64,000 nucleotides of DNA from Actinomycetes bacterium (GCA_037619625.1 JASJMK010000046.1:711-64710); one strand, 5' to 3'; counted from the first letter of the stretch, positions 1-36,674 are shown. Numbers and translations: made by a program. The notes: generated from the sequence alone by a model not told the origin.

Positions 1-19
1 AATCTGATTAGCTTTTCCT

Positions 20-1213
20 GTGGAAGGGTTTGATTTAGCTACGTTTGCGGAATCAATTACGGTTGCGGATCTTGATCGTGATCCGTACCCAATTTATGCC
101 AGGTTGCGAAAAGAAGCACCGGTAGCTTATGTTCCCGCAGTTAACTTATGGCTGGTAACTCGAGCTGAAGATGTTGAGTTTGTAACAACACACCCGGATC
201 TCTTCACTGCGCAAGTAACAGATTCGACTCTCGATCGATCCTTTAATGGCAAAAGCCTCCTCACCATGGATGGTGAGGAGCACCTTCATATGCGCAAGAG
301 CCTAGATAGCAAGTATCGCCCTCGCATGGTTTCCACCTACATTGATGATTTAGTAATGCCGATAGCAACGCAACAACTTACTGACATCATTTCTAATGTT
401 CGTCGTGAACTAGTTGCTTCATATTTTGAGCCAATTTCGGTTTTGAGTCTTGGTGCAGTCTTGGGCCTTGGCCACTTGAGTGCTGATACATTGCAGCACT
501 GGTTTCATGGGTTAGCGATGGGTGCCACTAACTTTGAACGCGACCCCGAGAAGCAAAAGATTTCAGATGCAGTTGAATCCGAGATGAATGATGAACTGCT
601 GCCTATTATGGCGCGGTTGCTGGCGACGCCCGATGATTCAACAATTTCGCACATGCTGCATTCTGGAATGCCAGATGGTGAGAAGCGCAGCGCCGAGTAT
701 ATTTTGCCAACTCTGAAACTTACGATTTTGGGTGGTATGCAGGAGCCGGGCCATGGAGCAGCAGCTACATTTTTCGCATTAGCAAACATTCCAGGGGCAT
801 TTGATCGACTGCGTCGAAGTCCGGAACTTTGGGATGACGTAATCCAAGAAGGCTTGCGTTGGATTGCACCAATTGGAACTCAGACTCGCCAGACTACCCA
901 GGACGTTGAGTTAGGTGGAGTTGTTATTCCTGCTGGTTCAGCGGTCGCGGCGGTCATCGCTAGTGCGTCAAGAGATGAAACAGTATTTACGCAACCAGAT
1001 GTTTTCGATATGGATCGACCTCGTGAATCAAATGCTTCATTTGGTTATGGCCCACATTTTTGTGCCGGGCATGCATTTGCGCGCGGCGTTGAGAGAATTT
1101 CACTTCAGGTTCTTGTTGAAGGTTTACCAAGTATCTCATTGCGCGACAGCGACGAAGTTGAATTTGCTGGTTGGGAATTCCGAGCACCTACAGCGTTGCA
1201 TACAACTTGGTAG
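20..1213 (+). CDS. Cytochrome P450, GcoA/CYP255-like aromatic O-demethylase
   Basis: Heme motif FGYGPHFCAG, ExxR (EGLRW), I-helix LGGMQEPGHG, plus DDSTISHMLHSGMP and EFAGWEFRAP blocks characteristic of GcoA as recalled. An in-frame stop at 5-7 shows the ORF is complete. Confidence 0.85.
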   Translation: MEGFDLATFAESITVADLDRDPYPIYARLRKEAPVAYVPAVNLWLVTRAEDVEFVTTHPDLFTAQVTDSTLDRSFNGKSLLTMDGEEHLHMRKSLDSKYRPRMVSTYIDDLVMPIATQQLTDIISNVRRELVASYFEPISVLSLGAVLGLGHLSADTLQHWFHGLAMGATNFERDPEKQKISDAVESEMNDELLPIMARLLATPDDSTISHMLHSGMPDGEKRSAEYILPTLKLTILGGMQEPGHGAAATFFALANIPGAFDRLRRSPELWDDVIQEGLRWIAPIGTQTRQTTQDVELGGVVIPAGSAVAAVIASASRDETVFTQPDVFDMDRPRESNASFGYGPHFCAGHAFARGVERISLQVLVEGLPSISLRDSDEVEFAGWEFRAPTALHTTW

Positions 1214-1684
1214 TTATACCTCGATGGTGACGGTCATTGGGCCATCACATACTGCGCTAATTCGCATATCAGCACCGAATTTTCCAGTTTCCACATTCGC
1301 GCCTAAGTCGCGAAGTGCACGAACAACTTCATTTACAAGTGGCTCTGCTTGTGGTCCGCGCGCCGCTTGTTGCCAAGTTGGTCGACGCCCGTTTGAGGTG
1401 TCTGCGAAAAGTGTGAACTGACTGATGGCAAGTATGGGTAGGGAAGCATCTGCAGCGGCAACCTCGACAGAGTTTGAGGTAACTTTTTTACCTGCAAGTT
1501 TTAAACTTGCTGATTCAAAAATTCGTAGTTTCCAAATTTTGTCAGCCAAAAGTGCGCATTTAGTTTCATCATCGTCAACACTTACCCCGATCAAAACCAA
1601 CAAGCCAGGTCCAGTGAATTCGCCAATAACTGTGTCATCCACTTCAACGCTGGCACCATCAACTCGCTGGATAACTGCACGCAT
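1214..1684 (-). CDS. dtd: D-aminoacyl-tRNA deacylase
   Basis: MRAVIQRV start (ATG at 1684), SQFTL and GKFGADM..DGP motifs. Confidence 0.93.
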   Translation of the reverse strand: MRAVIQRVDGASVEVDDTVIGEFTGPGLLVLIGVSVDDDETKCALLADKIWKLRIFESASLKLAGKKVTSNSVEVAAADASLPILAISQFTLFADTSNGRRPTWQQAARGPQAEPLVNEVVRALRDLGANVETGKFGADMRISAVCDGPMTVTIEV

Positions 1685-1756
1685 GAGTACATTCTGGTGG
1701 ATAACGCGGGGCAGGCGCATTAGGTATTAGGTATTGGGTCGTGGAACTATAGTCGC

Positions 1757-2701
1757 ATGTCTGTTCCTGTTGCATATGTGGTTCGAAGTGGCCTGGTCGA
1801 AGGCACTCATTTTGGCAATGCCGTTGTAGTGGATGCCCAAGGAAAAGTTGAGTGGTCCATAGGTGATGTATCAAGCGCTATGTTTCCCAGGTCCTCTAAC
1901 AAACTAATGCAAGGTTTGGCTATGGTCCGTAATGGGTTACCGCTCAAAAATGAACTATTAGCTTTAGCGTGCGCATCACATAGCGGTGAGGACTTCCACC
2001 TAGATGGTGTGCAAGACATCTTAAATGGGGCAAATCTAGAAACTGACTCATTAAAATGCCCACCAGATTGGCCGTTAGACGAAGTTGAGCGAGATACTTT
2101 TATAGCTGCCGGAATTGGTAAAGCACCGCTCTATATGAACTGCAGTGGAAAGCACTCGGCGATGCTTTTCACCAGTGTTTTGAATGGCTGGGATACCGAA
2201 ACTTACTTAAATCCAAATCATCCGCTACAAGTTGCATGTAGAGAAACGATCGAATCTGTAACTAGTGAAAAGGTAGAGCACATCGGTGTTGATGGTTGCG
2301 GCGCGCCATTAATGTCGATGTCGCTAACAGGACTTGCAAGATCGTTTTCTCAGTTTTCTGGACCAGCCGCAGATGCGGATCAAAAGAAGATCGCAACTGC
2401 GATTAAAGAAAATCCCCAGTACCTTGGCGGCACTAGGCGAGATGTCACCCATCTGATGCAAGGAGTCCCAGGTCTAGTAGCCAAAGATGGCGCTGAAGCC
2501 GTTTATGGAATTGGCTTGGGCGATGGGCGCGCACTTGCTTTAAAGATTGAAGACGGCGCAGACCGAGCCCGTATCGTCGTGGCAATGTCAGTTTTGCAGA
2601 AAATTTTAGGCGTTGTATCTCAAGAAGTTGAACGTCAGTTGGATAGCCAGGAACTTTTCGGCGGCGGCGTTCATGTTGGAAAAGTAATCTCAGCGTTATA
2701 G
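1757..2701 (+). CDS. Rhizobium-type (class 3 / asparaginase II) L-asparaginase family protein
   Basis: RSSNK, ASHSGE, NCSGKH, DGCGAP and KDGAE motifs. Confidence 0.88.
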   Translation: MSVPVAYVVRSGLVEGTHFGNAVVVDAQGKVEWSIGDVSSAMFPRSSNKLMQGLAMVRNGLPLKNELLALACASHSGEDFHLDGVQDILNGANLETDSLKCPPDWPLDEVERDTFIAAGIGKAPLYMNCSGKHSAMLFTSVLNGWDTETYLNPNHPLQVACRETIESVTSEKVEHIGVDGCGAPLMSMSLTGLARSFSQFSGPAADADQKKIATAIKENPQYLGGTRRDVTHLMQGVPGLVAKDGAEAVYGIGLGDGRALALKIEDGADRARIVVAMSVLQKILGVVSQEVERQLDSQELFGGGVHVGKVISAL

Positions 2702-2707
2702 ATCTAA

Positions 2708-3913
2708 CTAGGTACCAAGAAGTTGCTTGCGGTACTTCATAACTTCTGAAGTCATTCCAATACCAACAACACCGATTAAAACATCATTTCGGAAATAAGC
2801 CATAACTAGTTCACCTGATAACTCGCCATCAACTAATTCGTATCGATCAGCAAGTCCAGGCATGCCAAAACCTTGAATCTTCATGTCATATTGATCTGAC
2901 CAAAAGGATGGTAAAGGTGCGAAAGCTTGGGCTGCTAGTTCAGCAAAGTTGTCTGCCTGCGCCAAGTAAGCAGATAACACGGCGCCTACTCGTTTTCCAG
3001 TTTCGGTAGGGATGTTCCAATGCTCAATTCTTCTCGCCTCATCATCAAAAAGCGGATTCGCGAATCTGGCCAAGTCGCCAACGACATAAACTCCCTCAAC
3101 TGATTGCCCTTCCGTTGTAACTGCCCGAAGTGCGGAATCAGTCAGTACTCCGTTAGAAATATCAAGATTGGTATTTGCTAGCCATTCAACGTTGCAGTGT
3201 GAGCTAATCGCTTCAACCAGTACGGTGGCTTCCAATGATTCACCATCATCGAGTATTAACCCAGACAGCGAATCTGTTCCTATTAAGTCCTTTATGCCAT
3301 GGCCTAATCGAAAACTTACGCCATGACTTTCATGTCGACGCTGTAGTTCTGCTGAAAGCTTTTCCCCAAGCGGACGGATCATCGGAAAACTGTCAATTGC
3401 AACATTTGTGACTTCACAACCTAAACCTCTTGCGGTAGCTGCAACTTCACAGCCGATAAATCCGGCTCCGGCTACTATGACGCGAGCGCCAGGGACGAGG
3501 TCGGCCCGCAATCCAATTGCATCATCCAGCGTGCGCACAGTATGACGACCCGACAATTTATCGTTTGGGAGATCAAGTGTCCGTGGCCGCAATCCGGATG
3601 CAATAACTAGACCGTCGTAGTCAATAGCTTTTCCGGAATTCGTTGTTACGACCTGTGTTTCTAAATCGACGGAAGTTGCTGGATCACCCAGATGCCAAAT
3701 GACATCTTCGACTTGGGCTCGCAGCTTAAAAGCCACGGCATCGTGAGTTACTTCTTTAGCCAACACCTCTTTCGAAAGTGGTGGGCGGTTATACGGAGCA
3801 TGAACCTCCGCACCGATTACCGTAATTTGACCTTCGAAACCGTTATTGCGAAGTGCCTCGGCCGCCCGAAGACCACCCATTGAGGCCCCAACAATGACGA
3901 CAGATTTTGACAT
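2708..3913 (-). CDS. FAD-dependent ferredoxin reductase
   Basis: GASMGG FAD motif, PYNRPPLSK, GAGFIGCE NAD motif, EHW, FWSDQYD; directly follows a ferredoxin gene. Confidence 0.9.
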   Translation of the reverse strand: MSKSVVIVGASMGGLRAAEALRNNGFEGQITVIGAEVHAPYNRPPLSKEVLAKEVTHDAVAFKLRAQVEDVIWHLGDPATSVDLETQVVTTNSGKAIDYDGLVIASGLRPRTLDLPNDKLSGRHTVRTLDDAIGLRADLVPGARVIVAGAGFIGCEVAATARGLGCEVTNVAIDSFPMIRPLGEKLSAELQRRHESHGVSFRLGHGIKDLIGTDSLSGLILDDGESLEATVLVEAISSHCNVEWLANTNLDISNGVLTDSALRAVTTEGQSVEGVYVVGDLARFANPLFDDEARRIEHWNIPTETGKRVGAVLSAYLAQADNFAELAAQAFAPLPSFWSDQYDMKIQGFGMPGLADRYELVDGELSGELVMAYFRNDVLIGVVGIGMTSEVMKYRKQLLGT

Positions 3914-3927
3914 ATAGCAGGTGTCAG

Positions 3928-4119
3928 TTATTCAACAATAGATATTGCCTGCATTGGGCAAACATCCACGGCGCTTTCAACATCGCTTCGCCGACTGTCA
4001 TCAGCGGTAGCAACAAATTCAAGTTTGTCATTGTCATTCAACGCAAAAATGTCTGGCGCCTCGAAAACACATTGCCCGTAATGTTGGCACTTATCCATGT
4101 CGACATCGATGGTTATCAT
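3928..4119 (-). CDS. [3Fe-4S]-type ferredoxin (P450 redox partner)
   Basis: 63 aa, CQHYGQC...CP motif. Confidence 0.9.
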   Translation of the reverse strand: MITIDVDMDKCQHYGQCVFEAPDIFALNDNDKLEFVATADDSRRSDVESAVDVCPMQAISIVE

Positions 4120-4994
4120 TTCTTCTCCTCAACAGTTGATGGATATAAATCCTTGGAAGGAGTTCGAATTCCACGGAACTCCCAATCACCACCCAAGGCA
4201 GTGGAAACCACTTCTTCACTTTCTGTTGGCTGGGCGCCTACATCAGTACGGATTGCAGTTGGCCCCGTGACGATTGTGTTGGTCAGTTTGCCAAGGCCTT
4301 CAACTTCTACTTCAACCACGTCACCGGGTTCAACGGGACGTGAATTGGCCGGAGTTCCGGAGAACAAAATGTCACCTGGAACTAACGTGATCGTTCGGGC
4401 AATGTCAGCAATCAAGTAATGCATATCCCATTCCATGTTGCTGGTGTTGTCATCTTGCTTAACAACGCCATTAACTAAAGTTCGTATCTGCTTTCCTCGG
4501 AAGTCCCAATCTGTAATTAAGCCAGGACCAACAGGCGCCAATGTATCGCTTCCTTTTACTCGAAGCATGGATCCAGCATCGGTATCGCGGAAGTCATGAA
4601 GACCGTAATCATTGCCGATGGTGTAGCCAGCAATGTAATCCCCAGCTTCGGCAGGGCTGATGTTGCGGCAAGTCTTGCCAATCACGATTACGATTTCGCC
4701 TTCGTAGTTCAACCATTTACAACCTTGCGGGCGAACAATTGAACCTAAATGACTATTCAGTGCGGTAATCGGCTTGTGAAAGTACGTTGGTGCCGATGGA
4801 AGCTTAGTCATGAACTCCTGAGTACGACTGTCGTAATTCAGATGAACCGCAATAATTTTTGTGGGCTCACTTGGTGGCAAATGAATCGCGTGAGCAATTT
4901 CTACTTCTCTGCCATCTGGCGCAACGAGAGTTTCGCCGTGGCGAATCGTTTGAACCGCAAAACCATCAAGCAGAATGCGACGATACTCAGCCAC
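4116..4994 (-). CDS. Fumarylacetoacetate hydrolase family protein (HpaG-like isomerase/decarboxylase)
   Basis: KIIAVHLNY, YFHKP, YEGE, GNDYG, PGDILFSGTP. Start placed at GTG 4994, which overlaps the upstream stop codon. Confidence 0.85.
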   Translation of the reverse strand: MAEYRRILLDGFAVQTIRHGETLVAPDGREVEIAHAIHLPPSEPTKIIAVHLNYDSRTQEFMTKLPSAPTYFHKPITALNSHLGSIVRPQGCKWLNYEGEIVIVIGKTCRNISPAEAGDYIAGYTIGNDYGLHDFRDTDAGSMLRVKGSDTLAPVGPGLITDWDFRGKQIRTLVNGVVKQDDNTSNMEWDMHYLIADIARTITLVPGDILFSGTPANSRPVEPGDVVEVEVEGLGKLTNTIVTGPTAIRTDVGAQPTESEEVVSTALGGDWEFRGIRTPSKDLYPSTVEEKK

Positions 4995-5895
4995 GTGACA
5001 CCACTGGGTGTTTAACAGATGGGAAACCTTCGGCTGGTTTATCGAACCAAATGTGAACCTGGCCGGTACCAATCGAGTTTTCGTATTCTCCGTATTGACG
5101 ACCAGGCGCAGTGCAATCCGCTTCACCCATTGCGCCGTGCATCATCATGCCGTGTCCATACCGAGCCTCTGGCTTGTACTTGTGAAACTCGTCCATAGTG
5201 TCGAGCACTTTGGCATGTTTGCCTGCTAGGTACCAAGCAATCCGTTCTTCGTCGGCAGCACGTGCTGCTGGTGTATAAATGGAATTCAAATCTGCAGACT
5301 CATGTTTGCGTAGTTCACGCAACGGCCAAAACGTATGTGACAAAGCACCAGAGGCAATTAGCAAAACTTTGCGATCTGAATTTGCGATTGCTTCGCCAAC
5401 TGCGCGCCCTAATCGTAAATTATCTTCGTCATCACCGGTTTGGCACATACCAATGCTGATCCAGTTTTTATCCAAGCCTTTACCGAGATACATCCAGAGA
5501 TTTAAGGTCGCGTAGAAAGTTGGCAGGTGAGCGTTGTCAATCGGGGTGATCCAAGTCCCATGCTTTTCACCAAGTGAGGAAATTTCCTTAGCTAGCGCGG
5601 GGTCACCTTTCCAGTCATAAGGTACCGATGACATTCCTCGAGGCAGTTCTTCGCTGGTATAAAATCCCTCGCGCCGATCATGTGAGGTGACTACGAACTC
5701 AACCGTAGTTGCCCAATGCGAGTCAAAGACTATGACGGTGTCGTATTCAACTTTTTCAAATACGTCTTTACGCAGTCGCTCCAATCCTGCGACCAGCGTG
5801 AAGTCTTCCCCATTGTTGAGCTCCTTACGAATCTCAAGTGGCAAGACAATGGTAGGCACATGTGCCAATAGGCCAGCTCCAACAATTTCACCCAT
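4987..5895 (-). CDS. LigB-family extradiol dioxygenase, 3,4-dihydroxyphenylacetate 2,3-dioxygenase-like
   Basis: AHVPT, DSHW, ASGALSH and YENSIGTGQ motifs; sits between an ALDH and an FAH-family gene as in hpa clusters. Confidence 0.82.
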   Translation of the reverse strand: MGEIVGAGLLAHVPTIVLPLEIRKELNNGEDFTLVAGLERLRKDVFEKVEYDTVIVFDSHWATTVEFVVTSHDRREGFYTSEELPRGMSSVPYDWKGDPALAKEISSLGEKHGTWITPIDNAHLPTFYATLNLWMYLGKGLDKNWISIGMCQTGDDEDNLRLGRAVGEAIANSDRKVLLIASGALSHTFWPLRELRKHESADLNSIYTPAARAADEERIAWYLAGKHAKVLDTMDEFHKYKPEARYGHGMMMHGAMGEADCTAPGRQYGEYENSIGTGQVHIWFDKPAEGFPSVKHPVVSRG

Positions 5896-5898
5896 GAT

Positions 5899-7362
5899 TT
5901 ATTCCTTCCAACCGTTAGGCGCAAAGACCGTGTTCTTTACGTCTGCATAAAAATCAAATGACCAGATTCCACCTTCGCGGCCGATACCTGATTTTTTGGA
6001 TCCACCAAAAGGTGCACCAAGATCTCGTACAAAGAAACAGTTAACCCAAATCGTGCCAGCAACGAGCCGATTAGTGATGTCTTCAGCTCGCTTCTTGTTT
6101 CCACAAACGACTACTGCAGCTAACCCGAATTCAGTTCCGTTAGCCATCTCAATTGCCTCTTCGTCGGTGTCGAACTGCTGCATACTCAGCACTGGTCCAA
6201 ACACTTCTTGAGTTACGATTTCGCTGCCGACCTTTGGATTATCAATCAAAGTCGGCATAAAGAAGTTGCCACCCAATTCTGTATTAGGGCCACCACCCAA
6301 AACTACTGTCTGTCCTTCGGCTACTGCGCGGTCGACGAATCCCTTAACACGTGCAAAATGTTCTGGATGAATTTGCGGTCCGATGTCAGTAGCTTCATCG
6401 CGCGGGTCACCCTGCTTGATTTGCTTGGCTCGTTCGATAAATGCGGCTTTGAATTTCTCTGCGATTCCGCGCTGCACCAAGAATCTAGTTCCAGATAAAC
6501 AAACCTGACCGGCGTTGTCATACTGTTCAACTGCAACCGTCACTGCAATATCCAAGTCAGCGTCATCAGTAATGATGAGTGGACTCTTGCCACCAAGTTC
6601 GAAGGAACATGGCACAAGATTTTCCGCTGCTGCTTTAGCGACAAGTTTGGCAGTAGGAACTGAACCAGTAAATGAAATTCGGGATAAGTCTGGATGCGCA
6701 GTTAGCGCTGCGCCAGCTTCTTCACCAAAACCTTGCACAACATTAAAAACTCCCGGTGGCATTCCTGCCTCGGCAGTTATGTCTGCCAGTAGGGAAGAAG
6801 TGAGCGGTGCCCACTCAGGTGGTTTTGCTACAACAGTGTCGCCAGCCGCAAGCGCTGGACCAATTCGCCAAGTTGCGAGCATAAGTGGTGCATTCCACGG
6901 CGTGATGATTCCGGTAACCCCTGCTGGATCCCAAGTTACGTGATTTGTGTGTCCGCGAGTTTCAAAGTCAGGATAGTTAAGTTGATTTACTGCGTAGTCA
7001 GCAAAAAATCTAAAGTTCATTGCAACTCGAGGCATGACACCGCGACGATGCGAACGAAGTAGGGAACCGTTATCTGTGGTCTCAACAATGGCGAGATCTT
7101 CAATGCGGGATTCGATAATGTCAGCAACCCGATTCAAAATCGCGCCTCGTTCAGCTGGCGACATTTGAGACCAAATTGGAAAGGCTGCTTTTGCTGCGGC
7201 GACAGCTAAGTCAACCTCTAGTTTTCCACCACGAGAAATGTCTGCCAGAAAAGTGCCATCTATTGGGGAATGATCTGCGAACGTGGAATCAGAGGCAACC
7301 CGCTTGCCACCAATGAAATGCCGAGTATCTACTTCAACCCCAGCAACTGTTGCCATTGTCAT
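5899..7362 (-). CDS. Aldehyde dehydrogenase, HpaE / hydroxymuconic semialdehyde dehydrogenase-like
   Basis: ITPWNAP, FTGS, ELGGKS, GQVCLSG, EVFGP; the NCFFVRDL..PFGG..SGIGREGG tail is typical of HMS dehydrogenases. Confidence 0.85.
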   Translation of the reverse strand: MTMATVAGVEVDTRHFIGGKRVASDSTFADHSPIDGTFLADISRGGKLEVDLAVAAAKAAFPIWSQMSPAERGAILNRVADIIESRIEDLAIVETTDNGSLLRSHRRGVMPRVAMNFRFFADYAVNQLNYPDFETRGHTNHVTWDPAGVTGIITPWNAPLMLATWRIGPALAAGDTVVAKPPEWAPLTSSLLADITAEAGMPPGVFNVVQGFGEEAGAALTAHPDLSRISFTGSVPTAKLVAKAAAENLVPCSFELGGKSPLIITDDADLDIAVTVAVEQYDNAGQVCLSGTRFLVQRGIAEKFKAAFIERAKQIKQGDPRDEATDIGPQIHPEHFARVKGFVDRAVAEGQTVVLGGGPNTELGGNFFMPTLIDNPKVGSEIVTQEVFGPVLSMQQFDTDEEAIEMANGTEFGLAAVVVCGNKKRAEDITNRLVAGTIWVNCFFVRDLGAPFGGSKKSGIGREGGIWSFDFYADVKNTVFAPNGWKE

Positions 7363-7378
7363 GCCATCCCCTGAAAAA

Positions 7379-7396
7379 TCGTTCGGGTACTAACGA
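7379..7396. promoter_or_regulatory. Palindromic operator copy 1 (TCGTT-N8-AACGA), probable MarR site
   Basis: TCGTTCGGGTACTAACGA, 16 nt upstream of the ALDH start in a divergent promoter region. Confidence 0.7.
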
Positions 7397-7463
7397 ATTA
7401 CGATACGTTAAATTTAGTGATTTGGGAACCAAATTTAAGTAATTCTTTCATTAGGCTGGTGAA

Positions 7464-8144
7464 ATGTCGTTACGTCCCAGAATCGCACTAATAGGGCGGT
7501 TTACAAACTCGGCTTCGGCGCTTCGATACGCCGGCGTCGTGAGCTCAAGAGCGCTCTTGGAATCACTATGGAATGCCGGAGCTGAACCGGTAACCCTTAT
7601 GGCAGCGCCGGATAGTAATTGGGAACAGCGGCTCCGCGACTATCAAGGGGTATTACTTGCTGGCGGTGGTGATATCAATCCTGCCAGATACGGTCAAACA
7701 CCAGATGCGAGTGTCTATGACGTAGACGATCTCCAGGACGATTCAGATTTTGGAATGACCGAGTACGTATTGCAGCAGGGGATTCCTACCTTGGCAGTAT
7801 GTCGAGGCTTGCACGTCGTAAACGTTGTTCGCGGCGGAACTTTGATTCAAGATATGCCAGCTAATCATCGACATGTGGTTCAAGAAGTAAAAGTTAGCGA
7901 TTATGAATCTTTTGGATTTACTTCAGAGTTGGTAGGAACTTCGTGTTACCACCACCAAGCAATCGACAAGATTGGCGCTGGATTAGAAGTTCTCGGACGC
8001 GGTCCAGATGGAACCATTGAAGCTGTTGGAATTGAATCAACTGGCTGGGCTCGTGGCGTGCAGTGGCACCCCGAAGACACCGCAAAATCAGATGCAAACC
8101 AACACGGACTATTTATTCGGTTAGTTAAAGAAGCTAGTGCTTAA
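7464..8144 (+). CDS. Gamma-glutamyl-gamma-aminobutyrate hydrolase family (PuuD-like, peptidase C26)
   Basis: GGGDINP..YG, AVCRG nucleophile, HHQA, VQWHPE. Confidence 0.88.
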   Translation: MSLRPRIALIGRFTNSASALRYAGVVSSRALLESLWNAGAEPVTLMAAPDSNWEQRLRDYQGVLLAGGGDINPARYGQTPDASVYDVDDLQDDSDFGMTEYVLQQGIPTLAVCRGLHVVNVVRGGTLIQDMPANHRHVVQEVKVSDYESFGFTSELVGTSCYHHQAIDKIGAGLEVLGRGPDGTIEAVGIESTGWARGVQWHPEDTAKSDANQHGLFIRLVKEASA

Positions 8145-8646
8145 TTAGTTTTTGAGAATCTACGGTGATTGTGACCGCTCTTAGCAGGTCAGCAAATGAG
8201 CCGAGATCTGATCGCTTTAAATCAGCTACTGCCAGCTGCTCACCCTTATTGAATTCTGGGAATAGCTTCAACATCATTTTGCGACCCTTAGCCGTTAGCT
8301 TTACTAGAACCAAGCGACCATCTTTATTGCTGCGAGTTCGCGTAATAAGACCGCGTCCTTCGAGTGTTTGCATTACGCCTGTTAACGTCGCTTTGGAAAA
8401 CCCACCCTCCTCGGCAATAACCCGGGATTCAACTGGCTCCCAAATCCAAACCACCCATAGGACCACAAACGCTGTCCAAGATAAATCATGTTCAGCAAGA
8501 ACTGTGCGCTCCAGGTAATTGCGCACCGCGTTAGCAGCTCGGAAGAGGTTCGAGGCAACTGCCATAGCTTCGAAATCGATCTCTAAATCACCGAGTCGGG
8601 CCTGAACTTGGCGTTCAGTTTCGTCTAACGTGTGCTGACCAGCCAT
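8134..8646 (-). CDS. MarR family transcriptional regulator
   Basis: Winged helix SKATLTGVMQTLEGRGLITR..DGR..LTAKG. Confidence 0.9.
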   Translation of the reverse strand: MAGQHTLDETERQVQARLGDLEIDFEAMAVASNLFRAANAVRNYLERTVLAEHDLSWTAFVVLWVVWIWEPVESRVIAEEGGFSKATLTGVMQTLEGRGLITRTRSNKDGRLVLVKLTAKGRKMMLKLFPEFNKGEQLAVADLKRSDLGSFADLLRAVTITVDSQKLIKH

Positions 8647-8732
8647 GAAACCTCAATTTTTAGTACCTACTCGAACTTTATCGGCTTTCTTGAAAATGAT
8701 CCCAGGATGGGTCAGAATCAGGTATCTTAAAA

Positions 8733-8750
8733 CTGTTCGTACCCGAACGA
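8733..8750. promoter_or_regulatory. Palindromic operator copy 2
   Basis: CTGTTCGTACCCGAACGA between divergent marR and P450 genes. Confidence 0.7.
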
Positions 8751-8778
8751 TTATTTCAACTTGGTGTGAGGTGAGTTA

Positions 8779-10029
8779 GTGTCAACCGCGACAGATATCA
8801 GCTTGGCAAACTTAGATCTATTTGAAGCACAAATCCCATGGCAAACTTTTGATGAATTACGCTCTAGCAAGCCTGTGCATTGGAGTGAGGAACCTGCACC
8901 GAACTCAGGATTCTGGTCGCTAACGCGATACCACGATATTGTTCGCGTGCTGCGCGATACTGAAACTTATTCAAGTGAAAAAGGCACGGTTAATCTTGAG
9001 GAACTAGACGAAGAGCAGATGGAAGCTAGAAAATCCATGATTGAGACTGACGGTATTCGTCACCGCGCGCTTCGTAAATTGATGCAAGATTCGTTCACGC
9101 CCAAAGCAGTTGCTGGGTATGAAACTTTTCTCCGAGGATTGACGGCCAGCACGCTTGATGACGCTTTTGCTAAAGGATCATTTGATTTTGTTAAAGAAGT
9201 CGCTGCAGATTTTCCAATTCGAGTTTTAGCGAGACTTATGGACGTTCCCGACACGGACATTGACAAGTTGATCGCTTGGGGAAACCGAATGGTTGGAAAC
9301 ACCGACCCAGAACATGCCGATGTTTTGCTGGATTCACCAGAATCAGAAAAATACCGAATGTTGCCATTTCGTTCCCCTGCGGCTCTGGAAGTTTGGGCAT
9401 ATGGCGATGACTTAGCAAAGCAAAGACTGGGTGGCAAAGGTGTGGACATTGTTTCCACGCTTATCAATCAGACACCAATTGATGGACTGCCACTTTCCAC
9501 CAGAGACTTCCATGCTTATTTCTTGCTCTTGATTGTTGCCGGCAACGAAACTACGCGTCACACGATTAGCCACAGCATGAACTACTTGATTGATAATCCA
9601 GATCAAATGGCATTGATGCAGGAACGCCCAGAGTTAATTGAGTGGGGTGTAGAAGAAATGCTTCGCATGGCTAGCCCGGTTTATCATTTCCGTCGGACTG
9701 CGGCTAAGGACACCGAAATTAATGGTCAAGCGATTAAGGAAGGTGACAAAGTTGTTACCTGGTTTGCCGCCGGAAATCGCGACCCAGAAGTATTCAAAGA
9801 TCCTTACCGTATGGACATAACTAGAAATCCAAATGAGCACATGACATTTGGTCGAGGTGGCCCGCATATGTGCTTGGGTAATTCGTTAGCCCGCCTTGAA
9901 ATAAAAATTATGTTTGAAGAATTGTTACCAAGAATTTCTAACATTAAGCGAACCGGTGAAGTAGAACGGCTGCGAAGTAATTTCGTTAATGGAATTAAGC
10001 GTTTTCCGGTTGAAGTAACGCTTAAGTAG
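8779..10029 (+). CDS. Cytochrome P450 (CYP124/CYP125-like clan)
   Basis: AGNETTR, EEMLR..SPV..FRR, FGRGGPHMCLG, RSNFVNGIK. Confidence 0.93.
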   Translation: MSTATDISLANLDLFEAQIPWQTFDELRSSKPVHWSEEPAPNSGFWSLTRYHDIVRVLRDTETYSSEKGTVNLEELDEEQMEARKSMIETDGIRHRALRKLMQDSFTPKAVAGYETFLRGLTASTLDDAFAKGSFDFVKEVAADFPIRVLARLMDVPDTDIDKLIAWGNRMVGNTDPEHADVLLDSPESEKYRMLPFRSPAALEVWAYGDDLAKQRLGGKGVDIVSTLINQTPIDGLPLSTRDFHAYFLLLIVAGNETTRHTISHSMNYLIDNPDQMALMQERPELIEWGVEEMLRMASPVYHFRRTAAKDTEINGQAIKEGDKVVTWFAAGNRDPEVFKDPYRMDITRNPNEHMTFGRGGPHMCLGNSLARLEIKIMFEELLPRISNIKRTGEVERLRSNFVNGIKRFPVEVTLK

Positions 10030-10737
10030 TTAAATCAATTTAGCAATATCTCGCAGGAACGCATCAACTAGTTGGTTGGTGCGTTCTTTTGCGTTTAATT
10101 GCTCGGCAGCAGTGTGTGCTAGCAATATGTCAGGGTCCTGGCCGTCTTTGATAACTAAGTCGCGTCCGCCATTGTTTAGCCATCCAGCGAGCATTTCGGT
10201 TGTTAGCTCGGGATGGAACTGAACTCCCAAATTCCGGGCGTGAGTAAATGCCTGACTTGCTGCGGAGTTTCGAGCAACTTCCGATGCGCTCTCTGGTAGC
10301 TGCCACCGGTCATAGTGAAACTGAAACCATGGACCAGCCGAAACTAAGTCCGGATTGTCGGTATGAACTACGGTCCAACCAATTTCAGGCTTAGGCCCCG
10401 GCGCTACGCTGCCTCCCAGTGCTCGAGCAAGTAGCTGACCACCAAAACAAATACCGAAGATGGGTACATCTTGCGCGATCGCATTGGTTAGGAATTCCAA
10501 CTCTGGGGCTAGCCAGTTTCCAATGCGATCATCGTCCCAAGCTCCCCATGGAGCGCCCATTGGAACTATTACTTCGTAGTCGCCAAGATTGGGAAACTCC
10601 CTAACTACGTTTGGTTCGGGGAAATCCGCCTCAGACACAACTAAATATTCGTCTACTTCAAAGCCGTGGTGACGAAACCTCTCGGCCACAGGGCCGGGTG
10701 GGCTGACGTGGTCATGCGCAATAATGAGTACCCGCAT
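10030..10737 (-). CDS. Class I glutamine amidotransferase-like protein (putative gamma-glutamyl amide hydrolase)
   Basis: GICFGGQ nucleophile elbow and QFHPE; stand-alone and divergent from a GS-like gene. Confidence 0.85.
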   Translation of the reverse strand: MRVLIIAHDHVSPPGPVAERFRHHGFEVDEYLVVSEADFPEPNVVREFPNLGDYEVIVPMGAPWGAWDDDRIGNWLAPELEFLTNAIAQDVPIFGICFGGQLLARALGGSVAPGPKPEIGWTVVHTDNPDLVSAGPWFQFHYDRWQLPESASEVARNSAASQAFTHARNLGVQFHPELTTEMLAGWLNNGGRDLVIKDGQDPDILLAHTAAEQLNAKERTNQLVDAFLRDIAKLI

Positions 10738-10812
10738 GGCTACCTCATTTCCAGGTAATAATTTCTACTATTCTGCCCTAAAAGGATCTCCAAACGATTA
10801 AAATAAAAAAAA

Positions 10813-10830
10813 TCGTTCATACCCTAACGA
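10813..10830. promoter_or_regulatory. Palindromic operator copy 3
   Basis: TCGTTCATACCCTAACGA just upstream of the GGAGG RBS of the GS-like gene. Confidence 0.7.
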
Positions 10831-10845
10831 ATATTCGGAGGAACC

Positions 10846-12192
10846 ATGTCGCTCGATCTTTCTGCGCTTCGTGCCCAACTGCATAGCGAGAACATTGATG
10901 TATTGCGGCTGGTTTATGCCGATGTACTGGGAATCCCACGCTCCAAAGATTTACTCGTTAGCCAAATGGAAAAAGCCGCTGCACATGGGCCAGCTTTTTG
11001 CCAAGGAGTTTGGGTCACAACCACCCGCGGTGGCGTGTTGGACGGACATGGAAGTATTTCCTCTGGGCTATCCGATTTCGTTAGCCGGATTGATCCAAGC
11101 ACGATTCGCAAGCTTCCTTGGGAGCCAGGAGTTGCATATGCGATCGTTGATGCGTTCGAGCCAAATGGTGATGAGAATCCAGTTGCACCTCGAACTGCTC
11201 TGCAGAGAGTACTGAAAGCGTATGAGGAAGTTGGATTGGTTCCGGTAATTGGACCCGAACTTGAGTTTTACTTGGCCAAGCAAGAGAACAATGAATGGGT
11301 ACGCCCGCTACATCGAACTGGTCGGGTTTACACAACTGGTGCAATTGTGGATCCAGATGGCACGTTTTTACACATGTTGCGCATGCTTGATCAAATGGCA
11401 ATTGGCGTCTTCGCTGGTAATCACGAGTTCGCTGCAGCCCAGTATGAAATTAATCTGTGGCACGGCGAGGCTTTGGAATCTACAGATAGAACTTTCTTAT
11501 TCAAGACAGCGATCAAAGATATCGCAGTGCGTCGAGGTTACAACGCAACATTCCTAGGAAAGCCTTGGGCTGAATCTGAAGGCAGTGGTTTCCATCTGCA
11601 TTTCTCGGTAGTAGATGCCAAGGGTAAAAATCAGATGCATAATGGCGAAGAGCTATCAGAAGTTGCAAATCATATGATCGCCGGAATCCTAAGCCATGCA
11701 AATGCGCTCACTGCATTTACTAATCCAACAATCAATGCGTTCAAGCGACTAGGACCCGATACTTTAGCGCCAAGTCGTGCGAACTGGGGTTATGACAACC
11801 GGGCTACGCTGCTGCGAGTTCCACCTGAGCGCGGGGAAGGCACTCGACTTGAAATTCGAATCGGTGATGGCGCAGCCAACCCGTACCTCATGGTTGCTTC
11901 AGTCTTAGCTGCTGGCTTAGATGGAATTAAGCAGAAAATGAAGCCGAATAAAGCTGCGGAAGGTTGGGCTTATGAAGATGAGTCAGATCCATTGCTACCA
12001 CTTACATTTACCGCAGCACTAGATGCTCTTGATGCCGACCCACTCTTTGCAGATCTGATGGGACCAATCGTGGTTTCAACTCACTTAAATTTGAAGCGCG
12101 ATGAAATTGAACGCTATGAAGCAGAAGTTCCAGATCCAAGTACTCGCGAGATAACTACCTGGGAACTAGATGAATATATCTGGGATTACTAG
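10846..12192 (+). CDS. Glutamine synthetase-like gamma-glutamyl-amine ligase
   Basis: GPELEFY, HE..QYE, GSGFHLHFS, WGYDNR, RLEIR..DGAANPYL; lacks the GYEAP flap (has DTLAP). Confidence 0.85.
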   Translation: MSLDLSALRAQLHSENIDVLRLVYADVLGIPRSKDLLVSQMEKAAAHGPAFCQGVWVTTTRGGVLDGHGSISSGLSDFVSRIDPSTIRKLPWEPGVAYAIVDAFEPNGDENPVAPRTALQRVLKAYEEVGLVPVIGPELEFYLAKQENNEWVRPLHRTGRVYTTGAIVDPDGTFLHMLRMLDQMAIGVFAGNHEFAAAQYEINLWHGEALESTDRTFLFKTAIKDIAVRRGYNATFLGKPWAESEGSGFHLHFSVVDAKGKNQMHNGEELSEVANHMIAGILSHANALTAFTNPTINAFKRLGPDTLAPSRANWGYDNRATLLRVPPERGEGTRLEIRIGDGAANPYLMVASVLAAGLDGIKQKMKPNKAAEGWAYEDESDPLLPLTFTAALDALDADPLFADLMGPIVVSTHLNLKRDEIERYEAEVPDPSTREITTWELDEYIWDY

Positions 12193-12998
12193 ATCGGCTT
12201 TGAGCGATCAGCAATTAATTTGCCACCTGCGAAAGTAACTCCAACTTCGCGGTAGTAGCCACCAAGTATTTTTTCAACGGGAAGTATCGAAGCTAGTTCA
12301 TCCCATTGCGAATCACCGAGGACTAGTTCGGCGTCGCCCTTCCAAGCTTGACCAAGGTCTGCATCTATTCCATGCATAGTTATTAATTGATCCATAGATA
12401 GGCCGGCATCTTTTGTAATTGACGGCATGAAGCGGCTATGAAGCATTGCATGACCATTTACAAATCCGTTAGTTTCGCATGGTTCGCGCAGCGTTACAAC
12501 AGCAGAAGCCAGCCTGTGATCGTAAGCAGACAAAGTTGCGCCAAGCTTTGCGCCAGCCTCTAGGCGAGGGGACGCTTTGCCACGATTAAAAATTCGAGTG
12601 ACATGTGCAGAGCCAATTTTCTTTGGATACCCCTGATACCAACCACGAGCAATTGCGAAATCCTTAGTGACCCAAATTGCAACACAGCGACTGTAAGTTA
12701 CGCCTTCGTAGGAGCAGCGAACTACTGCAAAGGTTTCGAGATACTGCGAGCGAATCGGATCCAGTAACTCAGCACCGCCCTCGCTGCAGGATTGCCAATC
12801 TGCCCAAATCAAAGCAACGGCGCCAGGCTGGTCTGGGGCGAGATCGATATCGGGTGGCAGGATCGCACGAACATTCGCAGGATCAGTTAAGTACTCGACA
12901 GTTAGCAAAGTACCGCTGTAGTACCAGGGCATTTGCGGAATAATTCCACTTTTGCCGGTTGGTGTAAGCGGGGGCATAAATCCATGTAGTTCAGGCAT
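12189..12998 (-). CDS. Acetoacetate decarboxylase-like superfamily protein (MppR/Sbi00515-type)
   Basis: PWYYSG, DWQ, DP.RSQY.E and RGWYQGYPKK Schiff-base lysine motif. Confidence 0.85.
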   Translation of the reverse strand: MPELHGFMPPLTPTGKSGIIPQMPWYYSGTLLTVEYLTDPANVRAILPPDIDLAPDQPGAVALIWADWQSCSEGGAELLDPIRSQYLETFAVVRCSYEGVTYSRCVAIWVTKDFAIARGWYQGYPKKIGSAHVTRIFNRGKASPRLEAGAKLGATLSAYDHRLASAVVTLREPCETNGFVNGHAMLHSRFMPSITKDAGLSMDQLITMHGIDADLGQAWKGDAELVLGDSQWDELASILPVEKILGGYYREVGVTFAGGKLIADRSKPI

Positions 12999-13021
12999 GC
13001 GCCCATCGTAGTACGAAATAT

Positions 13022-13039
13022 TCGTTAGGGCACGAAAGA
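13022..13039. promoter_or_regulatory. Palindromic operator copy 4
   Basis: TCGTTAGGGCACGAAAGA just upstream of a TACGAT -10 box serving the ADC-like gene. Confidence 0.65.
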
Positions 13040-13040
13040 T

Positions 13041-13235
13041 TCAGTGGTCATTGATAGAAATTGCCTGCATTGGGCAAAGATCAGCAGCAGCTTGTGCGTA
13101 CTTTTCGTTTTCATGAGTTACCCCAGCGACCACTATTTGGGCCCGGCCTGATTCGCTTAGCTCGAATATTTCCGGCGCCTCGTGAACGCATTGCGCATAG
13201 CCTTGGCATTTCCCTAGGTCTATTTCGATATCCAT
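13041..13235 (-). CDS. [3Fe-4S]-type ferredoxin
   Basis: CQGYAQC...CP; ATG 13235 is preceded by a GAAAGGGG RBS. Confidence 0.88.
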   Translation of the reverse strand: MDIEIDLGKCQGYAQCVHEAPEIFELSESGRAQIVVAGVTHENEKYAQAAADLCPMQAISINDH

Positions 13236-13336
13236 GGAAGCCCCTTTCATTACCAATGATGACGTGATGCGCGATGCCAAAGCCCCGCGATATGGATCAT
13301 TCCACACAGTGCTTTAAATGATGATACAAATAGTGA

Positions 13337-14491
13337 ATGGATTTGAAGACAAGTGCGGGTCACGAAGATTTACGTTCTGCGATAGCTGCATTGTGCGCAG
13401 ATTTTCCAGGGGAGTACTGGCGCTCTTTAGAGCCAGATAAGTATCCGGATGCTTTTGTTGAAACGCTGACCAAGAATGGCTGGCTTTCCGTTTTGATTCC
13501 CGAAGAATATGGCGGCGGCGGAGCAACCTTAACGGAGGCCTCAATCATCTTGGAAGAAATCGCAGTTTCGGGTGGAAACCCAAGTGCCTGTCATGCCCAG
13601 ATGTATGTCATGGGAACTTTGTTGCGTCATGGCAGCGACGCTCAAAAGCAGCAGTACTTGCCGAAGATTGCGGCTGGCGAATTGCGACTCCAAGCTTTTG
13701 GCGTAACTGAGCCAAGTGCCGGATCTGAAACCACCAAGATTCGTACTAAGGCAGAGCGCGTAGATGGTGGCTGGAAGATAAACGGCCAAAAGATTTGGAC
13801 CTCACGTGCGCTTCATTCCGACTTGATGTTATTGCTGGCGCGAACCTCACCATTTGATGAAAGTGGTAAACCATCTGCCGGTATGTCTGTGTTTATTTTT
13901 GATATGCGAAATCTTGAGGGATTAACCATACGTCCAATCAAAACAATGATGAATCACAACACTACGGAAGTATTTTTTGACAACGTTGTTATTCCTGAAG
14001 ACTCACTTATCGGCGAAGAAGGAAAAGGATTCAAATATATTTTGGATGGCATGAATGCCGAACGTATTTTGATTGCGGCTGAGTGCATTGGTGACGGTCG
14101 ATTTTTCCTCGACCGTGCGGTTTCTTACGCGAATAGTCGAGAAATTTTCGGTGGCCCTATTGGTAAGAATCAAGGAGTGCAATTTCCATTGGCGCGGTCG
14201 TACATGCAACTTCGGGCAGCGGATTTAGTTAGGTTTGATGCTGCTGCTCGCTTTGATGCTGGCGAAGATTGTGGCGCACAAGCCAACACTGCGAAGTTCC
14301 TGGCTGCGGAAGCATCTTGGGCCGCTGGAAATGCGGCGATAGATACGCATGGCGGCATGGGGTTCGCTGAAGAGTACGACATTGAGCGTAAGTTCCGTGA
14401 AACCAGGCTTTATCAAGTTGCCCCAATTAACAATAACTTAGTTATGGCTTACATCGGACAGCATGTGCTGGGCTTGCCAAAGTCTTATTAA
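13337..14491 (+). CDS. Acyl-CoA dehydrogenase family protein
   Basis: AFGVTEPSAGS, INGQKIWTS, ER..IAAE, R.IFG.PIG.NQ, HGGMG. Confidence 0.92.
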   Translation: MDLKTSAGHEDLRSAIAALCADFPGEYWRSLEPDKYPDAFVETLTKNGWLSVLIPEEYGGGGATLTEASIILEEIAVSGGNPSACHAQMYVMGTLLRHGSDAQKQQYLPKIAAGELRLQAFGVTEPSAGSETTKIRTKAERVDGGWKINGQKIWTSRALHSDLMLLLARTSPFDESGKPSAGMSVFIFDMRNLEGLTIRPIKTMMNHNTTEVFFDNVVIPEDSLIGEEGKGFKYILDGMNAERILIAAECIGDGRFFLDRAVSYANSREIFGGPIGKNQGVQFPLARSYMQLRAADLVRFDAAARFDAGEDCGAQANTAKFLAAEASWAAGNAAIDTHGGMGFAEEYDIERKFRETRLYQVAPINNNLVMAYIGQHVLGLPKSY

Positions 14492-15186
14492 GACTTTTCA
14501 GCGGCTACATATTCTGAAATAAACCAGTCGACCAAGACTTCGCAGTTTTGTGCAGTTTCATCAGAAATTTCATTTAATTCAGACATCAATATTTCAGTAG
14601 TCATCCCAGTTGGTAAATAGTTAGCCCCACCGATGTCTAACCAGGCTTGAACTAAGTCAGTTGTAGCTTCAGGATGAAACTGGAGTCCAACTGCGGTTTT
14701 GTGCCGGAAGACTTGCACAGCGGATGGAGTCTCAGCCAAAACTTCGATGTGATCAGGAAGGATCATTCGGTCACTGTGCCAAGAAAACCAAGGGCCCTCT
14801 GGAAATGGCAAACCGAGTGCGGTTTCCTTTATATGAAGTTCTCCTAGTTCAAGTTCATCAGACTTTTCAACACTGCCGCCGACCGCCTTTGCTAACACTT
14901 GACCGCCAAAGCAAACACCAAGAAATGGAACTTTCTGATCAAAAGTAAGATTTATCAATTCTTCTTCAGCGTCTACCCAAGTAGCGACCTCTGGATCATA
15001 CGCACTGTAGAAAGACCCAAATGAAATAATAAAATCAAATTCAGATGGATCAGGGAAATTCAAGTTCAGTTCACCATCTTCGCCAAGAATTACGTGTCGC
15101 TTCGTTTCGATACCGCGCGATTCTAGAATGTCGCCAATTACACCTGGTCGGCCAGCTTCTTCATGACTGATTAACAAGGTACGCAT
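14488..15186 (-). CDS. Class I glutamine amidotransferase-like protein (second copy)
   Basis: GVCFGGQ, WHSD, QFHPE; directly downstream of the second GS-like gene. Confidence 0.85.
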   Translation of the reverse strand: MRTLLISHEEAGRPGVIGDILESRGIETKRHVILGEDGELNLNFPDPSEFDFIISFGSFYSAYDPEVATWVDAEEELINLTFDQKVPFLGVCFGGQVLAKAVGGSVEKSDELELGELHIKETALGLPFPEGPWFSWHSDRMILPDHIEVLAETPSAVQVFRHKTAVGLQFHPEATTDLVQAWLDIGGANYLPTGMTTEILMSELNEISDETAQNCEVLVDWFISEYVAAEKS

Positions 15187-15189
15187 GAT

Positions 15190-16512: not shown

Positions 16513-16632
16513 GAATTCCCCCAAAGTCAGGTTTTAGATATTCCTTAAGGGTAATGTGCCTTGAAACTGAATGTACTTGATTTCGCCTCGAAATTGATTT
16601 GATTTGGAAGCAAACGAAAGGAAGGCCGGCCA

Positions 16633-17589: not shown

Positions 17590-17609
17590 ATAAAGATCTG
17601 GAGATTTTA

Positions 17610-36355: not shown

Positions 36356-36362
36356 ATTATTT

Positions 36363-36620: not shown

Positions 36621-36674
36621 GACTCCAGCGTAATTCAGAATTGGAAAGTTCGTGCACATGCCTAAACTAGGACT

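Follow-up and report, generated by a model that had tools for sequence, protein, structure and literature searches.

What substrate would call for genes that open an aromatic ring alongside genes that put on and take off gamma-glutamyl groups? The question is raised by a 64,000 nt stretch of an Actinomycetes bacterium (GCA_037619625.1, JASJMK010000046.1:711-64710), here called the window, which lies on contig C46 of a 1.37-Mb assembly (genome G000; 78.6% complete, ∼47–48% G+C). At positions 2708–12998 of the window an earlier note, made from the sequence alone, had seen an HpaE/HpaD/HpaG-like meta-cleavage operon with ferredoxin and reductase, a PuuD-like hydrolase, a MarR regulator, a cytochrome P450, a class I glutamine amidotransferase (GATase), a glutamine synthetase (GS)-like ligase and an enzyme of the acetoacetate decarboxylase (ADC) fold. 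Our open reading frame (ORF) map and the Pfam and NCBIfam profiles reproduce these families and coordinates.

That these genes form a conserved regulon is well supported. As to its function, we give a probability of about 0.5 to the following reading: the cluster would encode catechol-forming breakdown of an aromatic amine under MarR control, with the amino group kept masked by a gamma-glutamyl group through ring fission, ending in pyruvate and a gamma-glutamyl amino acid. Gene presence, family membership, co-occurrence, gene order, conservation and the operator were read directly from the DNA, and from them we infer every chemical step.

Conservation of the cluster and its operator

The ORFs of the cluster were scanned with Pfam and NCBIfam profiles, and solved relatives were sought by comparison with the PDB. 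An alignment of the cluster dioxygenase, LigB, was scanned against one genome per species, giving at least 572 relatives; the best 80 loci were taken, and these are selected by LigB likeness and kin to one another (loci are numbered with L, genomes with G and contigs with C). Window proteins were matched to the related loci with tblastn (E ≤ 1e-10, at least 50% of the query), and the 56 loci that extend 8 kb or more to both sides are termed full. The independent sample consists of 400 genomes drawn evenly from the class, together with G000 (393 of high quality), with orthology cut-offs of E ≤ 1e-60 for LigB and E ≤ 1e-90 for GS.

Besides G000, 25 genomes of the class sample have a LigB ortholog and 25 have a GS ortholog, both being present in 24. 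The discordant genomes are G194, with LigB only, 571 nt from a contig end, and G151, with GS only, cut at a contig start. The earlier note had made its proposal depend on the GS genes accompanying the ring-fission genes in other genomes, which they do. The LigB ortholog occurs in 16 of 162 genera besides the window's own, and is accessory within that genus (12 of 36 congeners). The cluster is found in ∼6% of sampled Actinomycetes genomes, from Streptomyces-like genomes of 9–11 Mb to freshwater plankton of 1.7 Mb, and genera represented among the best 80 loci are Streptomyces, Kitasatospora, Mycolicibacterium, Nocardioides, Actinomadura, Actinoplanes, Lentzea, Amycolatopsis, Kineosporia and Salinibacterium, among others. 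Culturable strains with the cluster include Salinibacterium amurskyense DSM 16400 (L103) and Streptomyces thermocoprophilus JCM 10918 (L051).

The genes are linked as well. Among the 56 full loci an aldehyde dehydrogenase (ALDH) is present in all 56, the FAH-family enzyme in 55, ADC in 54, GS in 53, P450 and MarR in 50 each, the C26-family hydrolase in 46, a permease (any homolog) in 39, a second ALDH in 34, the ferredoxin/reductase pair in 31 and GATase in 24; L104 is the only locus without GS, C26 and GATase. For the 25 class-sample loci the counts are GS 21, P450 20, ADC 19, C26 18, GATase and MarR 17 each, an F420-type LLM enzyme and permease 15 each, and VanA/VanB 7. Three of the four class-sample loci without a GS match (L110, L111, L022 and L023) are cut by a contig end, and L111 (G154) has GS on another contig. 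A quick IQ-TREE run places the 81 GS proteins linked to the cluster in a single group, separate (SH-aLRT 99) from the sole outgroups, four paralog rows of the window's own genome; the cluster label was given at 40% identity or more to the window ligase, a level reached by all LigB-locus matches of at least 380 aligned residues, so that the grouping is in part circular. After L028, the nearest named relatives of the window in this tree are Salinibacterium.

An 18-bp palindrome, TCGTTM-N6-KAACGA, stands ahead of every unit of the cluster as a putative operator, with a fifth copy ahead of the permease gene. The site between the ALDH operon and the C26 gene (7379–7396) is an exact match, and its position is also filled in L028, L029, L037 and L123–L125. 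Between MarR and the P450 gene (8733–8750) there are two mismatches, and L029, L125 and L126 have one-mismatch sites at this position. The site between GATase and GS (10813–10830) is again exact, its position being filled also in L028, L029, L103, L105, L113, L114, L123–L126, L019, L020 and L021. The fourth site (13022–13039, one mismatch) lies 24 nt upstream of the ADC-fold gene, as one does in L028, L029, L124 and L125, and the fifth (18784–18801, two mismatches) lies 120 nt upstream of the permease gene; in L028, read by eye, palindrome-like sequence precedes both the permease and the ADC gene. All five window sites are intergenic or 16–120 nt upstream of cluster start codons.

The operator is claimed because it is conserved in other genomes, the window count alone being weak: the loose pattern is only mildly enriched there (13 matches against 6.4 expected, with 2 of 100 shuffles reaching 13). 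A first and looser pattern, TCGTTN8AACGA with up to one mismatch, was not significant in the window (4 against 2.2 expected) and was replaced by the refined one. The 80 related loci (1.45 Mb) hold 14 exact sites and 62 with at most one mismatch, against none exact and 2–6 for controls with N4, N5, N7 or N8 spacers or reversed halves; the class sample holds 6 and 36, its controls 0 and 0–3. All but one of the 62 sites, which is intragenic, lie in gaps between the genes of the cluster or in flanking DNA that no query gene matches, mostly just before cluster genes. The sites read roughly TCGTTCGGnnCCGAACGA and are found ahead of ALDH, C26, P450, GS, GATase, ADC and permease genes in distant genera. 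The earlier claim of one operator common to all units is thereby upheld, with five window sites, conservation in related loci and near-zero controls. The MarR protein (8134–8646, minus strand; PF01047 46 bits, cut-off 24.6; HpaR model 52.4 bits, cut-off 121.2) is presumed to be the repressor that would bind the palindrome. Loci with a TetR gene and no palindrome are L112, L116, L117 and L120, together with Streptomyces and Kitasatospora loci among L049–L106; there the regulator seems to have been supplemented or swapped.

Enzymes of the proposed pathway

The best curated models across the cluster are HpaD, HpaE, the HpaG C-terminal model, HpaR, PuuD and MppR, but all NCBIfam equivalog scores of cluster proteins lie below the curated cut-offs: the proteins are related to the named enzymes without belonging to those families.

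The amine would be taken up by a permease and then coupled, with ATP, to the gamma-carboxyl of glutamate by the GS-like ligase (10846–12192, plus strand). The ligase scores 300 bits with Gln-synt_C and falls under the cut-offs for GlnA, type III GS and GGputSyn (PuuA-type, NF045547; 255 bits against 650); among solved structures, true GS score ∼200 bits, GmaS 179 and PA5508 85.

Where a catechol has still to be made, the P450 next to MarR, termed P450b (8779–10029, plus strand), would oxidise the gamma-glutamyl amide with the help of the ferredoxin and reductase; in other hosts a VanA/VanB-type Rieske system or an F420-type LLM enzyme may do so. The ferredoxin (3928–4119, minus strand; 63 aa, single-cluster, Fer4_15 and Fer4_13) is followed by the reductase in 31 of the 56 full loci. 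The latter, a ferredoxin-NAD(P) reductase (2708–3913, minus strand; Pyr_redox_2 187.9 bits, with Reductase_C), would be the redox partner. P450 family names require more than 40% identity to a named member; PDB matches put P450b in the CYP125/CYP124 clan (CYP125MRCA, a reconstructed ancestor, 378 bits; CYP125 258; CYP124 231; also CYP268 and CYP153). Its closest solved relatives thus include the CYP125/CYP124 omega-hydroxylases of sterols and lipids, but no sterol catabolic genes lie near P450b, whose gene adjoins that of the GS-like ligase in most related loci. It is plausible that P450b oxidises an O-methyl or arene terminus held by the glutamyl handle. The reconstructed CYP125 ancestor, the closest of all, is treated in PMC12100521.

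These upper genes vary. Among the best 80 loci a VanA-type Rieske oxygenase is present in 16 and a VanB-type reductase in 10, a hint of methoxylated amines in some hosts. Seven loci have the F420-dependent LLM (TIGR03619 176 bits, cut-off 166.9), an ortholog of which was not found in the window's 78.6%-complete genome, and other such genes are Amidohydro_3 (7 loci), SDR (5) and TetR (13).

The ring would be opened in extradiol fashion by LigB (4987–5895, minus strand; PF02900). It scores 125.5 bits with HpaD_Fe (TIGR02298), against a cut-off of 315.95, and its closest solved relative, aligning end to end, is 8IQ8, a 3,4-dihydroxyphenylacetate 2,3-dioxygenase (65.8 bits alone, 94.8 with a profile). 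Residues H12, H60, H187 and E243 are unchanged across eight orthologs. The resulting semialdehyde would be oxidised by the HpaE-like ALDH (5899–7362, minus strand; Aldedh 500.7 bits), for which HpaE (TIGR02299) is the top of 41 ALDH models at 518.2 bits, below its cut-off of 638.35.

Isomerisation and decarboxylation of the ring-fission acid would fall to the HpcE/HpaG-like FAH enzyme (4116–5126, minus strand; PF01557 186 bits), which is 64–87% identical across other orders and scores 200 bits with the C-terminal half of HpcE (PDB 1GTT). Its top NCBIfam models are the unnamed PRK12764 (216.1 bits, cut-off 444) and the HpaG C-terminal model (190.7, cut-off 276.4); it is a single FAH domain, whereas HpaG/HpcE have two, and full-length PRK15203 gives 151 bits against 811. 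The FAH ORF as listed shares 140 nt (4987–5126) with the end of the LigB gene. Overlaps of 85–136 nt, with the FAH N-terminus still aligning, occur in L021, L026, L037 and L103, though not in Streptomyces loci; either the stretch is conserved and dual-coding or the true start is later.

The last step on the ring carbons would belong to the ADC-fold enzyme (12189–12998, minus strand; PF06314 190 bits, cut-off 29.8). Over its full length it aligns with MppR (4JM3, 160 bits) and with 4ZBO (152 bits; also 6EEJ), a 265-aa 'acetoacetate decarboxylase' which in our reading is Sbi00515, a pyruvate aldolase-dehydratase. The lysines presumed to form the Schiff base in catalysis, K156 of 4JM3 and K122 of 4ZBO, have K126 of the window protein as their aligned counterpart. 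Sbi00515 performs aldol and dehydration chemistry on pyruvate adducts. PMC7820114 describes the same chemistry for MppR, and proposes MppR-like proteins of S. solfataricus as a meta-pathway aldolase. Unlike MppR itself, the window protein scores below the equivalog cut-off (TIGR04460, 179.7 bits against 380) and sits in a catabolic setting, not one of enduracididine biosynthesis. Given the two alignments and the shared lysine, it would supply the hydratase and aldolase steps, adding water and then splitting off pyruvate to leave a gamma-glutamyl-omega-amino aldehyde.

The lower half thus resembles the homoprotocatechuate (Hpa/Hpc) pathway, whose LigB-type dioxygenase, HpaE-like ALDH, HpcE-like FAH enzyme and HpaR-like MarR regulator are the best matches here. 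It differs in its scores below the equivalog cut-offs, its single-domain FAH enzyme and the lack of room for an HpaF tautomerase gene. A search for an HpaI-type aldolase (PF03328) found no match in the 78.6%-complete genome, although the same search matched 10 of 14 reference genomes (HpaH was not searched), and the ADC-fold enzyme would stand in for both.

Aldol cleavage in the established homoprotocatechuate pathway yields pyruvate and OHC-CH2-(side chain). The earlier note had counted carbons on this basis, and checking by hand agrees: a side chain -CH2CH2NH-gammaGlu gives gamma-glutamyl-gamma-aminobutyraldehyde, the PuuC substrate, whose acid is the substrate of PuuD. A two-carbon side chain, as in dopamine or hydroxylated tyramine, would therefore yield gamma-aminobutyrate (GABA), and we infer that the dioxygenase would accept a glutamylated catechol. 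The genes are compatible with several substrates: GABA would come from tyramine or dopamine, beta-alanine from an amine of the benzylamine type, glycine from one of the aminophenol type and glutamate from L-DOPA.

Oxidation of the gamma-glutamyl aldehyde would need a PuuC-like ALDH, whose gene is clustered in most genomes, not in the window. The earlier note had listed this gap, which holds for the window and is filled in relatives: 34 of 59 C26 genes have a second ALDH gene (ALDH2) no more than 300 bp away. Of the NCBIfam models, PuuC fits the two examples scanned best (564 and 568 bits, below its cut-off of 850; the next model gives 483–515), the phenylacetaldehyde dehydrogenase StyD being second or third. 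In the window's 78.6%-complete genome there is no clear ALDH2 ortholog, none of 11 ALDH matches exceeding 43% identity (best 41–43%). One ALDH on contig C22 (38–1375), 43% identical to the relatives' PuuC-like enzyme, lies 2 kb from a second C26 paralog (3343–3921), and this pair could supply the step in trans.

Glutamate and the amino acid would finally be freed by the C26 hydrolase (7464–8144, plus strand), a PuuD/SpuA-like gamma-glutamyl hydrolase (PF07722 127.4 bits, cut-off 20.5; PuuD equivalog NF008471 58.8 bits, cut-off 266). It matches 3FIJ (Lin1909), SpuA 7D4R and PuuD 6VTV in the PDB, and has the motifs AVCRG and WHPE, which we take to be those of the Cys-His-Glu triad. The stand-alone class I GATase (10030–10737, minus strand; PF00117), with GICFG and FHPE, would be a second hydrolase, either of gamma-glutamyl amides or a glutaminase. 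It scores 177.8 bits with 7D54, a Mycolicibacterium smegmatis GATase that, according to PMC12958103, was crystallised with glutamine.

The model for these end steps is the Puu pathway of Escherichia coli, in which PuuA, PuuB, PuuC and PuuD convert putrescine to GABA. Both systems have ATP-dependent gamma-glutamylation by a GS-like enzyme, then a PuuC-type ALDH and a C26 hydrolase, adjacent in relatives of the cluster. The cluster, however, lacks a PuuB-type oxidase, its aldehyde would arise by aldol cleavage of the ring-fission product, and its PuuA, PuuC and PuuD model scores all lie below cut-off.

Which genes are dispensable is seen in seven loci (L065, L069, L077, L087, L048, L032 and L043) whose DNA has no match to P450b, VanA or LLM and which keep GS, C26, ALDH2 and the ring-fission genes; in L032 the sole P450 match has 28% identity and lies at the locus edge. 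Such compact clusters read GS | ADC-ALDH-LigB-FAH-(TetR/permease)-ALDH2-C26 | MarR or close variants, and L032 and L043 have (ADC-)ALDH-LigB-FAH-ALDH2-C26 on one strand. Ten flanking ORFs scanned in them are transporters, regulators, SnoaL-like, peptidase S58, prenyl transferase and HAD hydrolase genes, with no oxygenase, amine oxidase or aminotransferase among the ten. P450-less loci fall at three or more places in the GS tree, among P450-bearing ones, which suggests that the core can operate without extra oxygenases. The invariant core (ligase, dioxygenase, two ALDHs, FAH and ADC-fold enzymes, C26 and MarR) would provide exactly what is needed to cleave, by a dehydrogenative meta route, a catechol that carries at position 4 a side chain with NH-gamma-Glu at its end.

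Alternative explanations

According to the earlier note the window lacks amine oxidases and transaminases. None is found among the 41 ORFs scanned with Pfam (∼24 further ORFs of at least 120 aa were not scanned individually), and genome searches with PF01179, PF01593 and PF00202 have no match on contig C46 (class I/II aminotransferases were not searched). Matches to PF01593, the PuuB-type flavin amine oxidase family, are confined to contigs C12, C63, C66 and C78; on C12, two of them share an 11-kb stretch (34828–45586) with genes for an ALDH and a class III aminotransferase. A copper amine oxidase lies on contig C55 (23230–24438), and the genome therefore has other ways of breaking down amines.

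Such an unlinked enzyme is what the likeliest alternative, itself unlikely, draws upon. Glutamylation would there serve the oxygenases only; C26 or GATase would free the catecholamine, which an unlinked amine oxidase and ALDH would turn into homoprotocatechuate, and an Hpa-type route would lead on to pyruvate and succinic semialdehyde. The HpaD/E/G/R matches of the lower enzymes and regulator, the oxidase on C55 and the rank of StyD among the models for ALDH2 all fit, as does precedent: the Ipu pathway of Pseudomonas sp. KIE171, from isopropylamine to L-alaninol, hydrolyses the gamma-glutamyl group directly after P450 hydroxylation. The cluster shares with Ipu, by domain architecture only, a clustered GS-like ligase, P450, ferredoxin, reductase, GATase-type hydrolase, ALDH and permease, but Ipu has no ring-cleavage genes and frees its amine at once. 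A glutamyl handle would have no client in the clusters that lack P450b, VanA and LLM yet keep GS, C26 and ALDH2, and the one-strand order FAH-ALDH2-C26 suggests action after ring fission. Nor does an amine oxidase or aminotransferase recur among the unassigned ORF families of related loci scanned with Pfam (those in at least five loci and two of the four in three loci). The same oxygenase-free clusters bear on oxidative deamination of the glutamyl amide, an alternative already raised in the earlier note. In the form considered here the P450 would hydroxylate beside the amide nitrogen, giving an arylacetaldehyde and glutamine, ALDH would lead to homoprotocatechuate and GATase would recycle the glutamine. 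This would account for the missing amine oxidase, and it agrees with the glutamine-bound closest solved relative of GATase and with the adjacency of GS and P450 in most loci. But P450 is missing from 6 of the 56 full loci and from several otherwise complete compact clusters that retain GS, both ALDHs, C26 and the ring-fission genes, while C26, present in 46 of the 56, would be superfluous. Since P450-less clusters exist, we reject oxidative deamination as a general mechanism, and we rate it the least probable of the four alternatives.

A further account takes the genes as two separate pathways, merely co-regulated or co-inherited: a Puu/Ipu-like module (GS, P450, ALDH2, C26, GATase and permease) and a homoprotocatechuate module (LigB, ALDH, FAH and ADC), which might handle, for example, a compound in which an amine and an aromatic acid are joined by an amide bond. 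Each half does resemble a known self-contained system, the P450 clan favours aliphatic termini, and seven related loci carry an Amidohydro_3 gene. Against this the halves co-occur, 24 of 25 each way in the 400 genomes and G000, they have one operator in common and are interleaved in one operon in many genomes, and the amidohydrolase is in a minority of loci; we think this account improbable, ranking it behind the unlinked-oxidase route. Less probable again is a substrate with its nitrogen on the ring. The Atd/Tdn aniline pathway has a gamma-glutamylanilide synthase, a GATase hydrolase and a Rieske dioxygenase, AtdA1/A2 and TdnQ/T resemble the GS-like/GATase pair, and here too an arylamine would be glutamylated, an oxygenase would form a catechol or aminophenol, and LigB would cleave it. 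Both systems tie a GS-like ligase and a stand-alone GATase to aromatic degradation by meta-cleavage, and the next solved relatives of LigB are 2-aminophenol 1,6-dioxygenase beta subunits (AmnB). These, however, score 50.8–57.9 bits against 94.8 for the HpaD structure, and no Rieske aniline dioxygenase is found among the cluster ORFs of the window. Atd/Tdn loses its glutamyl group at catechol formation, before ring fission, and the PuuC-like/C26 pair would be left without a role unless the group stayed on, which would make a glycine-yielding variant of masked ring fission.

Ring fission under a gamma-glutamyl mask is the reading we prefer, and several points weigh against it. The ring-fission enzymes and regulator are closest to HpaD/E/G/R, and a free arylacetate substrate would fit at least as well. 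With every equivalog model below cut-off, curated rules assign no function, and the PuuC-like ALDH is absent from the window cluster. The solved relatives of P450b attack terminal methyls of sterols and lipids, not arenes. The copper amine oxidase on C55 means that a classical arylethylamine route exists in the genome. P450-less clusters could be decaying remnants, only ten of their flanking ORFs having been scanned, and Streptomyces-type loci have no palindrome but a TetR gene between FAH and permease instead. Finally, there is the kinship of the related genomes and the choice of the 80 loci by LigB. Of the interpretation offered in the earlier note, the parts that concern co-occurrence, PuuC, the aldolase and deamination have come out favourably; none of the evidence singles out the amine.

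Neighbouring genes and wider meaning

The APC-family amino-acid/amine permease (18921–20435, plus strand; AA_permease 99.6 bits) is the likely uptake system. Copies 54–76% identical to it flank the cluster in L027–L029, L037, L103, L105, L020 and L125. Between operators 4 and 5 of the window lies a second module (13041–18854) in which Pfam finds ferredoxin, acyl-CoA dehydrogenase, GATase, GS-like ligase, Zn-ADH and P450. Window positions 1–13045 have a collinear counterpart, at 88% DNA identity, in the congener locus L028, where the match resumes at 18969; the cluster proteins of L028 are 90–99% identical. The module is absent from the otherwise collinear L027, L028 and L029, where the permease gene abuts the ADC gene, and present in G001 (L026). 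From this collinearity we conclude that 13041–18854 is an inserted gamma-glutamyl/P450 module of Ipu-like make-up, outside the conserved cluster, and that the permease is part of the regulon. Operator 5 lies within the final 70 nt of the module's P450 ORF (18784–18854), so the insertion junction crosses the 3′ end of that gene. The record of L028 is titled Bifidobacterium breve; the title looks like that of a mislabelled metagenome-assembled genome.

The window has four P450 genes (20–1213, 8779–10029, 17610–18854 and 45400–46599). The one at 20–1213 (plus strand; Pfam p450), termed P450a, is a possible accessory monooxygenase of uncertain membership: homologs lie within the cluster in L037 and L124 (48% and 63% identity), and the 55 bases ahead of it show no operator. 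The stretch from 1757 to 2701, which separates P450a from the reductase, carries a gene of the asparaginase II family and one for Dtd, kept only in congeners (L025, L026 and L028). A search of the genome, of roughly the 1.7-Mb class, with the window ligase gave six GS-type matches, among them the window's two and presumably the true GlnA (contigs C85, C29, C15 and C78); the density of amine-glutamylation and P450 genes is unusual for such a genome. Farther along, the UbiA, AMP-binding, enolase-like, TPP enzyme and chorismate-binding families at 36924–47865 fit menaquinone biosynthesis, with no link to the cluster seen, and the order and sizes of the ORFs at 48962–63969 recall, as a guess, the nuo operon.

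The earlier note knew of no characterised pathway with this architecture, and in the open-access CC-licensed full text of PMC and bioRxiv (subscription journals being outside this scope) we likewise found none for tyramine, dopamine or phenethylamine. The sole actinobacterial mention of gamma-glutamyl tyramine found there is a metabolomic annotation in two marine actinobacterial extracts, in PMC12391250, and a search there for Sbi00515 gave nothing. Gamma-glutamyl amine catabolism and Hpa-type meta pathways are each already known; what would be new is their being joined.

We put forward only tentatively, as doubtful but worth stating, a broader proposal: that a non-deaminating route for amines of the dopamine/tyramine type is widespread in actinobacteria, in which the ring is cleaved while the amine is capped, the ADC-fold enzyme acts as hydratase/aldolase and entry into Puu chemistry gives pyruvate, GABA and glutamate, and that a branch of the CYP125 clan consists of arene or O-methyl oxidases of gamma-glutamyl amides. 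If the masked route is real, it would be a third way for bacteria to use aromatic amines, beside oxidative deamination to an arylacetate and the aniline route. It would give a role to MppR/Sbi00515-like aldolase-dehydratases, to many CYP125-like P450s outside sterol degraders, to one large orthologous group of GS-like ligases and to a clade of HpaD-like LigB proteins, for which one scan gave 572 genomic relatives or more. The pathway is open to testing in culturable carriers, and the cluster may have a part in how biogenic amines from plants, algae and animals are turned over in soil and water.

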